Part shown: piece after piece, positions 10,623 through 39,987 of the stretch
Layout: each line of letters starts with the position of its first letter
Numbering within the stretch: the stretch's first letter is position 1
Assembly: GCA_014804755.1 (NCBI GenBank)
Contig: JAAUZE010000008.1
Span: forward strand, 100,109-164,108
Direction: 5' to 3'
From: Lachnospiraceae bacterium
GTDB taxonomy: Bacteria; Bacillota; Clostridia; Lachnospirales; Lachnospiraceae
Length of the DNA: 64,000 bases
Program-made: the position numbers and the translations under genes
The notes under the pieces: generated by a model
The model's database searches: none
Seen by the model: the letters and a program-made list of their open reading frames with translations, nothing else
What the model was told of the DNA's origin: nothing

Positions 10623-10892
10623 ATGATGTATCCTTTTTTGACTTTAGAGGACAACACAGAAATTGTACATTCGGAGCAATTGGAAAATGGGGAGGTAAAG
10701 GTATATGTTGAGACACCTGATGAAAAGGATTGTTTTCACAACATGACCTGTTATCTGCCGTCTTATCGCATGGAGGTTCATGGTTATTCAGAGGAACAAG
10801 TCAAATATTATATGGATATTATTAAATCTACGGCACACCTTATTATGGAATTTTCACGAGAAGGAGGATTTATGAATGCCTCGGGTTTTTAA
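10623..10892 (+). CDS. Hypothetical small protein, translationally coupled to the DUF4160-like gene
   Basis: Good RBS (AAGGGGGTGA). It overlaps the next ORF by 17 nt. No motif was recognised. Confidence 0.4.
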   Translation: MMYPFLTLEDNTEIVHSEQLENGEVKVYVETPDEKDCFHNMTCYLPSYRMEVHGYSEEQVKYYMDIIKSTAHLIMEFSREGGFMNASGF

Positions 10893-11154
10893 AATCGGCT
10901 CCTATTGGGTTTACTTTTGGGCGAATGAAGGAAGACCGAGTGAGCCTGTACATGTGCATGTGTCAGAAGGAAATCCGTCAGCAAACGCTACAAAGATATG
11001 GATTACTGCTTCGGGTAAATGCCTGCTGGCACATAATAATTCCGATATACCACCAAATGCATTGCGGAATATTATGAGAATCATAGAAGCACGCAGTGAG
11101 GAAGTGATTCAGAAATGGATTTTATTTTTTGGGACGGAAACATATTATTGTTAA
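10876..11154 (+). CDS. DUF4160-like small protein
   Basis: The pattern YWVYFWANEGRPSEPVHVHV resembles the DUF4160 signature (xxEHxPPHxHV-type). Confidence 0.5.
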   Translation: MPRVFKIGSYWVYFWANEGRPSEPVHVHVSEGNPSANATKIWITASGKCLLAHNNSDIPPNALRNIMRIIEARSEEVIQKWILFFGTETYYC

Positions 11155-11239
11155 TGTCGTTGCAATTAGTGAGTTTAGCCAATATTGGGCTTTTAAATTT
11201 GTGAAGAGGAGGTTTCTATGATGAAAGGAAAGCAGTTTT

Positions 11240-38018: not shown

Positions 38019-38043
38019 TTGCTGCAGAGAAAGAGAGATAAAT

Positions 38044-38787
38044 ATGCAGATAGATTTTTATTATTGGGGCGGCATGTGTCCTATTTCAGACGAAATCATT
38101 CAAATGCTGTCACGTTGGGATAACAAATTTGATATTCGGTTGCATGACATAACAAATGATTTTGATCTGGCAAAAAATAAAAGCATGTTCTTTCCGTTCC
38201 TCACGATTGTGAATCATAAAGAAAGATATTATGGCCCTGTTTCAGAAGCATTCTTACAAACGTTAAGTACGGGAATGCTGCCAAAAGAAACTCCATATAG
38301 AATTACGATGGGAACAGTCGAAAAAAGCGAGGTCATTCAGCCGATACATAAGGATAATTATTTTCTTGCGTCACAGTGTACCGGTAGAAGGAATTGTTCA
38401 GGATGTAGTTCAAAGGTTAAAATGTATCAGGATTTTCCGGATGGAATAATCGGGTTTATGAATATGGATAACGAAACATTGTTGGGGGGCGCGGAGTACG
38501 TTCCATCTTTGTACGTCCCATATGATATTCCTAAGGGACAGGAAATTGCATTTATTACCTGTGTTTATTTGTCAGATGAGACTTTTGATTATAAATCAGC
38601 ACCATTGAGGGCATTAGAACAATATCTGTCAAAGCGGTACAAAAAAGCGATTGTTATTTCAGATGAAGAAGGTACTTTTCCGAATGGGGATTTACAATTT
38701 TTCGAGAAAAACGGATATCATGATGAGAAAGTGATTTTTGAGGATCGTTATTGCAGACTGCATCTCTTAGTGAAAGATTTAATTTAA
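38044..38787 (+). CDS. Hypothetical protein (thioredoxin-like N-terminal region; tentative)
   Basis: This is a long ORF with coding-like composition. The N-terminal YYWGGMCPIS...FFPFLTIVN suggests a Trx-like fold, but this is not verified. Confidence 0.35.
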   Translation: MQIDFYYWGGMCPISDEIIQMLSRWDNKFDIRLHDITNDFDLAKNKSMFFPFLTIVNHKERYYGPVSEAFLQTLSTGMLPKETPYRITMGTVEKSEVIQPIHKDNYFLASQCTGRRNCSGCSSKVKMYQDFPDGIIGFMNMDNETLLGGAEYVPSLYVPYDIPKGQEIAFITCVYLSDETFDYKSAPLRALEQYLSKRYKKAIVISDEEGTFPNGDLQFFEKNGYHDEKVIFEDRYCRLHLLVKDLI

Positions 38788-38802
38788 TAAATAAAAATTT
38801 GA

Positions 38803-38831
38803 TTGACATAGTTGAACTCCATTTATATAAT
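38803..38831 (+). promoter_or_regulatory. Consensus sigma-70/SigA promoter
   Basis: TTGACA (38803-38808), a 17-nt spacer, then TATAAT (38826-38831). Both hexamers are perfect. Confidence 0.7.
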
Positions 38832-38837
38832 ACTAGT

Positions 38838-38956
38838 ATAGATGAGCAATCATCAGGTGAGTCCTACCGATAAGTGGAATCGATAAGAGAGTATTTCCGT
38901 TGCGACGGATACTACCGAAAGGCTATGCTTTGGCGTAGCCTTTTCTATTATTTTTT
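38838..38956 (+). ncRNA. Orphan small RNA candidate (about 115 nt) between a consensus promoter and an intrinsic terminator
   Basis: No ORF with an RBS. Internal hairpins are GATGA-GCAA-TCATC (GNRA loop) and GTAT..CCGT-TGCG-ACGG-ATAC (UNCG-type loop). The terminator is GGCTATG-CTTTGG-CGTAGCC followed by TTTTCTATTATTTTTT. Confidence 0.5.
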
Positions 38957-39072
38957 AACACAAACATGACACACAGATGTCATGTTTTGCGTTCTATGAT
39001 AAATAAAAGCGGAGACAGAAGCGATAAAAGCGATGTGCCGCGGGCGAGGGTGCGGCATACAGGAGGACCGCC

Positions 39073-39987
39073 ATGAAAATAGACAGACTGATCGGAATTT
39101 TGTCCATATTACTGCAAAAGGATACCGTGACCGCGCCTGACCTGGCGGAGAAGTTTGAGGTTTCCAGACGAACGATCAACCGGGATATTGAAGATCTGTG
39201 TAAAGCGGGCATTCCCATTGTGACGCGGCAGGGAGCGGGCGGCGGCATCTCGATCATGGACAACTATAAGATAGACCGGACACTAGTGAATCACGCGGAG
39301 ATGCAGGATATTCTCGCGGGGCTTCGCAGCTTAGACAGCGTAAACGGAACCAATCGGTACGGACAATTGATGGAAAAATTATCGGTCGGTTCCTCGGATT
39401 TTTTAGTCGGAAATCAGTCAGTGCTGATCGATCTCTCCTCGTGGTATAAAGAATCACTTGCGCCCAAGATCGAATTGATACGCGCCGCGATCGATGTGAA
39501 AAAAGAACTGCTGTTTACCTACTATTCTCCGAGCGGTGAATCCGTCCGGCGCATCGAGCCGTATTATCTGATCTTTCGATGGTCAAGCTGGTATGTGTGG
39601 GGCTTTTGCAAAATGCGGGAGGATTTCCGGCTGTTCAAGCTAAACCGCATGGAGGATGTGCGCGTGTCGGAGGAGGTGTTTGTAAAGAGGAAAGCAGATG
39701 TGCCGGATTTAAATGATGAGGGTATCTTTCCCGGCGGAATCAAGGTGAAAGCACTTTTTGAACCGGAATGCAAATGGAGACTGGTCGAAGAGTTCGGGAC
39801 GGAATGCTTTCGGGAAACGGAGAACGGGAAGCTGCTTTTTCAGGCGGATTATACAAACAGGGAAAATCTGATCACGTGGCTCATGACGTTTCGGGAAAAA
39901 GTGGAGCTTTTGGAACCGGAGGAGATCCGGGCGGAGCTTATCGCGTGTTTTGAGAGGATACGCAGAAAATATGATTCGGGCAGCTAG
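39073..39987 (+). CDS. YafY-family transcriptional regulator (HTH plus WYL domain)
   Basis: The HTH_11-type segment is MKIDRLIGILSILLQKDTVTAPDLAEKFEVSRRTINRDIEDLCKAGIPI. The WYL core is LLFTYYSPSGESVRRIEPYYLIFRWSSWYVWGFCKMREDFRLFKLNRM. Confidence 0.8.
   Translation: MKIDRLIGILSILLQKDTVTAPDLAEKFEVSRRTINRDIEDLCKAGIPIVTRQGAGGGISIMDNYKIDRTLVNHAEMQDILAGLRSLDSVNGTNRYGQLMEKLSVGSSDFLVGNQSVLIDLSSWYKESLAPKIELIRAAIDVKKELLFTYYSPSGESVRRIEPYYLIFRWSSWYVWGFCKMREDFRLFKLNRMEDVRVSEEVFVKRKADVPDLNDEGIFPGGIKVKALFEPECKWRLVEEFGTECFRETENGKLLFQADYTNRENLITWLMTFREKVELLEPEEIRAELIACFERIRRKYDSGS

Follow-up and report, generated by a model that had tools for sequence, protein, structure and literature searches.

Type III toxin-antitoxin loci are laid out as an antitoxin RNA, a Rho-independent terminator and a toxin gene (PMC5086642, PMC3401426), with the antitoxin encoded by an array of 1.9-5.6 copies of a 31-62-nucleotide (nt) repeat (PMC3401426). 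ToxI units bind the ToxN toxin through the base of a pseudoknot and single-stranded tails, while ToxN cuts the antitoxin RNA between adenines of its linker and the bound RNA occludes the ToxN active site (PMC8860590, PMC5086642). Loci of the toxIN type were already listed for Lachnospiraceae in 2012 (PMC3401426). Here we describe a gene at positions 38793-38947 on the forward strand of a 64-kb stretch of DNA from a Lachnospiraceae bacterium (contig JAAUZE010000008.1; hereafter the window), which is very probably an orphan antitoxin gene of the ToxI family, the antitoxin half of a toxIN/AbiQ-family type III module that lacks toxN. A preliminary description had treated it as a small RNA of unknown class. 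This assignment is overturned by homology to ToxI and antiQ, as the core pseudoknot sequence matches annotated ToxN/AbiQ plasmid loci and near-identical RNAs stand directly upstream of PF13958 ToxN genes.

The window RNA shares with ToxI of the ToxIN systems (P. atrosepticum; also E. coli and B. thuringiensis) the core GGUGA-N3-4-CUACC-N2-3-AAGUG, stem S1, a covarying stem S2 of 3-4 bp, an A-rich linker and the promoter-RNA-terminator layout, and the partner toxin of the homologous loci is PF13958 (PMC8860590, PMC5086642). Unlike ToxI, which comprises 3-5.6 tandem repeats of 34-36 nt, the window RNA has one canonical unit and additional GNRA and UNCG hairpins; its loop L1 is one nt shorter, and no toxN lies next to it. 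A Firmicute member of the family, antiQ of the L. lactis AbiQ system, has a unit (GCGGUGAAUCUCCACCAUCAAGUGAGAAUC) that aligns column for column with that of the window, and its repeat period in the lactococcal plasmid L056 (~35-36 nt) is also that of the Lachnospiraceae arrays L041 and L033. However, antiQ is a tandem array, with three consecutive units in L056, and lies directly upstream of abiQ on a plasmid, whereas the window RNA is chromosomal, single-unit and toxin-less.

The nearest described precedent for a solo type III antitoxin is pseudo-ToxI of phage PhiTE, which, like the window RNA, is encoded without a toxin of its own, and which neutralizes ToxN in trans when expressed (PMC3475682). 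The phage RNA was selected as an escape from abortive infection, whereas the window RNA is chromosomal, lies beside housekeeping and stress genes and is known from sequence. Loci with full repeats and truncated toxins (Blower et al. 2012, PMC3401426) have likewise kept antitoxin and terminator, and 10 such clusters are among the matches listed here; in the window, by contrast, the toxin open reading frame (ORF) is wholly gone, so that a toxin-anchored search could not find the locus. The family, its toxin and its layout are known. A single-unit, hairpin-flanked ToxI and a chromosomal toxin-less ToxI as a frequent state appear undescribed in the literature searched, in which 'orphan antitoxin' never appears together with ToxI or ToxN and the review PMC5086642 does not use the word 'orphan'.

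A ToxI-type unit between a promoter and a terminator

The module comprises the following elements, all on the forward strand.

38793..38947, whole toxI module (promoter, RNA and terminator stem), delimited by homology to toxIN modules and to the locus L021 of a more distant lineage
38803-38808, -35 hexamer TTGACA, consensus; TTGACA, TTGGCA or TTGCAT at the same position in homologues
38826-38831, -10 hexamer TATAAT; kept as TATAAT or TACAAT in homologues
38841..38854, hairpin P1, 5 bp with a GNRA loop, GAUGA-GCAA-UCAUC, a 5' extension of the antitoxin unit supported by covariation
38855..38890, canonical ToxI-type unit of 36 nt (GGUGAGUCCUACCGAUAAGUGGA...), its core invariant in 16 subfamily members
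38856-38859 (GGUG) paired with 38865-38868 (UACC), stem S1 of the unit
38862-38864 (UCC) paired with 38876-38878 (GGA), stem S2 (pseudoknot) of the unit
38872-38876, AAGUG element of the unit
38878-38890, A-rich 3' tail AAUCGAUAAGAGA with a putative ToxN cleavage site (AUAA/G), placed after PMC8860590
38891..38912, hairpin P2, bulged, 8 bp with a UNCG-type loop, GUAU-UU-CCGU-UGCG-ACGG-AUAC, supported by covariation
38912..38918, second CUACCGA motif, found by repeat search; its CUACC columns C75-C79 are invariant in subfamily alignment A5
38918..38943, intrinsic terminator stem-loop AAAGGCUAUGC-UUUG-GCGUAGCCUUU, 11-12 bp, supported by covariation
38941..38956, U-rich tail, of which 38941-38947 is module and 38948-38956 pre-existing flank

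Homology to toxN-linked modules and to L021 begins at ~38793 (AAAATTTGATTGACATA); at the 3' side, toxN-linked homology stops at the TTTT run 38941-38944 and the sequence of the relative L012 resumes at 38948. As noted in the preliminary description, both promoter hexamers are consensus with a 17-nt spacer. The promoter (38803-38831) matches at 12 of 12 positions and is the sole site to do so in 36-42 kb, where promoter-like sites as a class are not enriched (12 found vs 10.7 expected), and in homologues the -35 box lies 16-17 nt from the -10 box despite differing spacer sequences. Promoter spacing places the predicted transcription start near 38838, and the transcript model 38838-38956 (119 nt) has a minimum free energy (MFE) of -34.7 kcal/mol, with z = -2.9 vs shuffles. 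The terminator DNA (GGCTATGC-TTTG-GCGTAGCC) is lengthened by AAA/TTT and followed by a T-rich tract to 38956. Of the strong terminator and T tract described previously, the stem belongs to the module, whereas the T tract from 38948 is ancestral flank common to relatives that lack the RNA.

The two tetraloop hairpins recognized from the outset, GATGA-GCAA-TCATC and GTAT..CCGT-TGCG-ACGG-ATAC, are both supported by covariation. The transcribed stretch was rightly called free of ORFs preceded by a ribosome-binding site (RBS) and is non-coding; its lone ATG ORF, 38842-38886 (14 amino acids (aa), MSNHQVSPTDKWNR), was rejected as a small-protein gene because no Shine-Dalgarno sequence precedes it and an 11-nt duplication shifts its frame in the otherwise identical L021 copy. 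The CTACCGA motif occurs twice as reported, at 38864-38870 and, 48 nt downstream, at 38912-38918, and we read it as a trace of the repeat structure of the antitoxin: comparison with the 35-nt arrays suggests that P2-CUACC-GAAAGG is a degenerate second repeat that would give the downstream side of the processing site. By analogy with described ToxI linkers, AUAAG of the 3' tail is a candidate for the A-rich cleavage site. The ToxI-type motif is unique in the window (0 expected by chance), and blastn-short, a motif search and a covariance model detect no other copy of the RNA there.

To place the unit in the ToxI family, we compared it with repeats fetched upstream of genes annotated as 'ToxN/AbiQ family toxin' on plasmids. 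The window unit (38855-38890) aligns (alignment A6) with the units of P. atrosepticum ToxI, L. lactis antiQ, Fusobacterium, C. botulinum and S. horikoshii, as the following units illustrate.

P. atrosepticum, repeat unit CAGGTGATTCGCTACCTTAAGTGCGGGACGAAAATC
L. lactis (antiQ), repeat unit GCGGTGAATCTCCACCATCAAGTGAGAATCAAAAAA
S. horikoshii, repeat unit TCGGAGAGCTCCTACCGTATAAGTGGAGAA...
Window, repeat unit CAGGTGAGTCCTACCGATAAGTGGAATCGATAAGAG

Taking S1 to be GGU/ACC, and S2 to be the pairing of the last 3-4 nt of loop 1 with the bases that begin at the final G of AAGUG, we find 94.8% of the S1 and S2 cells in A6 to be paired, compared to 38-52% in slid controls. S2 changes on both sides at three of its four pairs and reads UCC/GGA in the window, CGC/GCG in P. 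atrosepticum and CUC/GAG in L. lactis. Crystal structures of ToxI indicate that two G-C pairs in S1 as well as G5, A6, U12, A19, A20, G21 and U22 are conserved (PMC8860590), and the window unit has every one of these. The stand-alone promoter-terminator unit, its strong conservation and a long unpaired stretch in its MFE fold could also describe a base-pairing regulatory RNA of a new class, possibly co-opted from an antitoxin. We consider this very improbable, as the 'single-stranded' stretch is the pseudoknot, homology to ToxI explains every conserved feature, and the genomic neighbours of the homologues are toxN or unrelated genes.

As in described antitoxins, the RNA sits between a promoter and a Rho-independent terminator, both conserved in position among homologues. 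It is not a tandem direct-repeat array, it does not stand immediately upstream of a ToxN/AbiQ (PF13958) gene, and the bicistronic antitoxin-terminator-toxin operon of a complete type III system is absent. The locus would therefore be passed over on array structure and toxN adjacency, yet clearly carries an antitoxin.

The Rfam scan suggested in the preliminary description was run and gave 0 matches at the gathering threshold across the 64-kb window; at E <= 10, it returned only chance-level matches (GibS, STnc320, snoRNAs) that rest on the terminator or on A/T-rich stretches. This blank is uninformative because Rfam 15 has no model that detects the ToxI family: the canonical ToxI/antiQ arrays L055, L056, L177 and L181, which include P. 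atrosepticum ToxI and L. lactis antiQ, also give 0 matches at E <= 0.01. A blank Rfam scan thus does not imply a new RNA class, and annotation that relies on Rfam will miss type III antitoxin RNAs. It had also been allowed that the RNA might turn out to be the 3' fragment of a known element, and the outcome is close to this, in that the RNA makes up the antitoxin portion of a two-gene module already described.

Homologues, toxN linkage and the single-unit subfamily

A search for homologues and covariation in related genomes, likewise suggested earlier, yielded both. One genome per species was scanned with the 19-mer GGTGAGTCCTACCGATAAG (38856-38874), giving 32 loci, nearly all in Lachnospiraceae, Eubacterium or Acutalibacteraceae metagenome-assembled genomes (MAGs) from rumen, rabbit and mouse gut. 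Metagenomes scanned with the pattern GGTGAGTCCTACC-N1-4-TAAGTGG gave at least 120 loci from gut and rumen-type samples, without taxonomic labels. The recurring layout is a promoter, an RNA starting from or near GGUGAG, a terminator hairpin, an RBS and an ORF starting M..RLNLY.VDMKY.R.L. The earlier view of the locus as a self-contained promoter-RNA-terminator unit is supported. The ORFs that follow the terminator are PF13958 ToxN_toxin (E 9e-38 to 7e-46). Several loci carry the motif as a 35-nt tandem array, with 3.0 copies at 100% matches in L041.

The full architecture of the window RNA is found in 16 distinct sequences (alignment A5). Across their helices, 95.9% of cells are paired and 18 pairs show changes on both sides, values that none of 500 shuffles reaches. 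Changes on both sides affect four of the five pairs of P1 (GACAA-GAAA-UUGUC in L044, for example), four of the eight pairs of P2, which is 99.2% paired, and 10 of the 11 pairs of the terminator helix. No variation is seen in the pseudoknot core or in the second CUACC. P1 is missing in some members (L088, L139, L054). A covariance model (R1) scores the window subfamily at 104-135 bits and other ToxI subtypes at no more than 57 bits, with one copy in the window. Eight subfamily clusters (L027, L043, L183, L028, L044, L049, L077 and L088/L172) directly precede a full-length ToxN-like reading frame, confirmed as ToxN by Pfam in two of them; three (L029, L126, L139) have only a partial toxN and six (the window, L021, L054, L084, L140, L147) are toxin-less.

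Tandem Repeats Finder detects no tandem repeat in window 38700-39100 or in the toxN-linked homologue L027, indicating a ToxI variant without repeats, which a search by the customary repeat criterion would miss. The single-unit subfamily as a whole, including the members that keep toxN, departs from the tandem-array criterion. Because it is paired with ToxN in other genomes, a single-unit hairpin-flanked ToxI bears on how ToxN recognizes and processes its inhibitor.

Among the matches listed, there are ~150 motif-bearing loci, of which 130-odd have downstream sequence adequate for classification. Within 450 nt downstream, toxN is full in 55, partial in 30 and absent in 48. Clustered at 90% identity, 35 clusters have a full toxN, 10 only a truncated one and 25 none (70 informative clusters, with 9 uninformative), although these orphan fractions are rough and biased, because the scans demanded an intact core and MAG contigs are short and fragmentary. 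The genes that follow the terminator in orphans are mutually unrelated (AP_endonuc_2, AAA-ATPase_like with PDDEXK_9, GNAT, HTH), and a substitute toxin in place of toxN was rejected on this ground. Toxin-less antitoxin genes thus make up about one third of the core-bearing clusters listed, which is relevant to the decay of phage-defence modules and to the possible use of solo antitoxins by cells or mobile elements against one another's toxins.

At least 10 human-gut metagenome contigs (L085, L090, L106, L108, L123, L135, L144, L152, L157, L171) share a single orphan ToxI locus, which has a -10 box, a terminator and an intact RNA; in place of the expected toxN, AAGGAG and an AP_endonuc_2 (nfo-like) gene come next. 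In an array-type cluster (L061, L063, L069, L073, L075, L086, L092, L098-L100, L107, L117), nine copies of toxN are full and nine are truncated after ~37 aa; here the toxin is inactivated repeatedly or is polymorphic in the population.

Window-specific 21-22-mers gave 0 matches against viral sequences, and blastn against plasmids and phages gave none. A viral scan with the general core found one contig, L182 (IMGVR_UViG_3300029574_000132), whose reverse strand holds two tandem promoter-array-terminator modules at ~10700-11200: the first has the core of the window (GUCC/GGA) and is toxin-less, while the second, with another repeat (GACCC/GGG), precedes a toxN. The toxin-less array could be a solo antitoxin on a mobile element.

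Genomic site, conservation and possible role of the orphan gene

In the window, the terminator is followed by CTA (3 nt), the ancestral T tract, a YafY operator and yafY, whereas toxN-linked relatives continue with GTGTTAC..AAGGAG..toxN. A tblastn search with eight ToxN proteins found no match in the 64-kb window. With toxN absent from the locus, the RNA gene counts as an orphan antitoxin. A toxN of the same genome or sample was sought through protein names and contig look-ups, which yielded no link.

The surroundings of the module were compared with those of relatives that have or lack it. The segment concerned is the following.

38021..38947, forward strand, 927-nt segment missing from the relative L012, holding a 247-aa ORF (38044-38787) and the toxI module

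L012/L013 (GCA_014804305.1), at ~92.5% nucleotide identity, are collinear with the window but lack exactly 38021-38947, such that window 38020 maps to L012 2371 and window 38948 to L012 2372. The empty site reads TTTTATTTTTTAA, and the T tract from 38948 onward is common to both. Three further strains (L017-L019) also lack the segment, whose junctions, as read, show no target-site duplication and no terminal repeats; the idea of a mobile element or integron-like cassette was set aside on this ground. In the more distant lineage L021/L022 (L020 in part), the RNA stands at the same junction upstream of yafY, without the 247-aa gene and with unrelated DNA to its left. In five other contexts, the DNA downstream of 247-aa protein homologues encodes no related RNA. 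The RNA module thus stands apart as a unit that belongs to neither neighbour. A link to the upstream 247-aa gene was rejected on those five contexts and because no toxI locus among the matches listed has that gene upstream.

What lies between an 81-aa gene and yafY varies: L012 and L017-L019 have an empty site, L014 (1415-2257) an unrelated 280-aa ORF, the window the 247-aa ORF and toxI, and L021 toxI together with other DNA. One assembly, L003, is broken at the 38947 boundary.

Identity between the window and L021 is distributed as follows.

-35 box and spacer, 14/22
38826-38944, -10 box to end of terminator stem, 119/119, plus one 11-nt tandem duplication in L021
Downstream intergenic sequence, 100/115
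YafY coding sequence, 824/915

Against flanks that are 87-90% identical, the 119/119 stretch is significantly conserved (Fisher p ~7e-6). This pattern suggests that the RNA was held unchanged by either purifying selection or gene conversion, which the comparison does not separate. The duplicated 11-nt unit, TAAGTGGAATC (window 38867-38885; L021 2282-2303), lies inside the ToxI unit and is in tandem in L021/L022. Independent assemblies break at this unit (L005 stops at 38866, L002 begins at 38875 and L020 at CGATAAGAG), which points to the presence of both one-copy and two-copy alleles within samples.

We propose that the locus represents the promoter, ToxI-type RNA (~105-115 nt) and terminator that normally precede toxN. 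The RNA contains one H-type pseudoknot unit, which combines a GGUG/UACC stem, a UCC/GGA pseudoknot stem and the conserved GA and AAGUG elements and ends in an A-rich 3' tail; it is flanked 5' by the GNRA hairpin and 3' by the UNCG hairpin and the degenerate second CUACC repeat. In complete modules, such an RNA binds the ToxN endoribonuclease, is cut by it in the A-rich linker and blocks its active site; the putative cleavage stretch of the window RNA is GAUAAGAG. The gene is most likely a remnant left after toxin loss, the sole viable order of decay for such a module. To judge by its sequence, it should still be competent for transcription, presumably as a ~110-nt species that would stay unprocessed without ToxN. 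Its sole plausible activity would be to neutralize a cognate ToxN in trans, supplied by a second locus or by an incoming plasmid or phage.

Several observations weigh against the orphan-antitoxin assignment. The window has no tandem repeat and so falls short of an array of at least 1.9 repeats, and the tblastn search of the 64-kb window detected no toxin partner for its RNA. The perfect identity to L021 could stem from recent gene conversion or transfer instead of selection, and the 11-nt duplication tolerated inside the L021 unit hints at relaxed constraint. The orphan counts carry the bias given above, and binding of ToxN by a hairpin-flanked unit is proposed by analogy.

If the gene is an orphan antitoxin, a trans-neutralizing role is plausible at slightly less than an even chance. 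The RNA would then be kept to disarm plasmid- or phage-borne ToxN (anti-addiction) or because a partner toxN lies elsewhere in the genome. Its conservation and intact consensus promoter fit such a role, as do the neutralization of ToxN by phage pseudo-ToxI (PMC3475682), the wide spread of cognate toxIN modules in gut and rumen metagenomes and Lachnospiraceae genomes, and the toxin-less array of L182, which has the same core and immediately precedes a complete toxIN built on another repeat. However, L182 is a single viral example, the tblastn search found no cognate toxN in the window, gene conversion can explain the conservation, and the interaction with ToxN is argued by analogy.

Alternatively, and with a smaller though still appreciable probability, the RNA is an idle, inert relic of toxN loss that persists through short elapsed time or through recombination with other copies. 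Loss of the toxin first is the expected path of decay, truncated toxN and toxin-less copies are frequent in the family, and no partner recurs among the varied genes that follow the orphans. The 11-nt duplication allele inside the unit is also consistent with a relic, as is the finding of no second exact-core locus in the 31 genome assemblies with matches (not counting a chance match in L035). A relic would not be expected to show 0 substitutions in 119 nt where both flanks differ by ~10-13% between two lineages at one junction, nor intact helices, nor good -35 and -10 hexamers in both lineages when the spacer is just 64% identical. The remaining, smaller share of probability falls to co-option or to an outcome that we leave unassigned.

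A broader reading, which we regard as unlikely, is that solo type III antitoxins form a selected class, with gut Lachnospiraceae and at least one virus keeping strongly promoted, toxin-less ToxI genes as 'vaccines' against the ToxN of incoming plasmids, prophages or neighbouring defence modules. If so, the solo role would be served best by a non-repetitive, single-unit ToxI with stabilizing tetraloop hairpins on its flanks, and the class as a whole would have escaped searches anchored on toxins or on repeats.

The YafY operon and other neighbouring genes

Downstream of the module lie genes for a YafY/WYL regulator and for YjbR, GyrI-like and 3-dmu-9_3-mt proteins, with an SRAP gene (L001) beyond. 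The RNA has the same orientation as this operon, lies 130 nt upstream of the yafY ATG and adjoins yafY in the L021 lineage as well, so that it might be taken for a cis-acting, riboswitch-like leader or attenuator controlling read-through into the YafY-YjbR-GyrI-like operon. The preliminary description had argued that it is not positioned as a 5' leader, and we too rejected this role, which we regard as extremely improbable: the RNA is absent upstream of the orthologous operons in L012, L013, L014, L016 and L017-L019, of which the close relatives L012, L013 and L017-L019 keep the operon without it. Upstream of yafY it occurs solely in the window lineage and L020-L022, and among the ~150 matches listed yafY lies downstream in this lineage only. 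In addition, a conserved palindromic operator and a -10-like box stand downstream of the terminator, and the terminator tail is stronger, not weaker, than in toxN-linked copies.

The operator is a perfect palindrome, AAACATGACA-N6-TGTCATGTTT, at 38962-38987, 7 nt upstream of a TATGAT box. It is kept upstream of the yafY orthologues in L012, L014, L016 and L021 with arms that change together, reading AAACACGACA...TGTCGTGTTT in L021, and is probably the WYL/YafY operator of the operon of YjbR, GyrI-like, glyoxalase-like and SRAP genes, which looks like a DNA-damage or xenobiotic response unit. For the neighbouring genes, PADLOC and NCBIfam returned generic WYL/HTH matches for YafY only.

The upstream 247-aa ORF (38044-38787) has no Pfam, NCBIfam or PADLOC match; its 113 homologues at E <= 1e-5 are mostly from Clostridia and often lie beside GNAT acetyltransferases. 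In L014, the yafY orthologue (annotated at 330 aa, with an N-terminal extension) is preceded at 2330-2560 by purine-rich, imperfect repeats of ~12 nt (GACGAAACAGTGGCAGAAATAAAAACAGTGACAACAAAAGCAGTGACGGC...).

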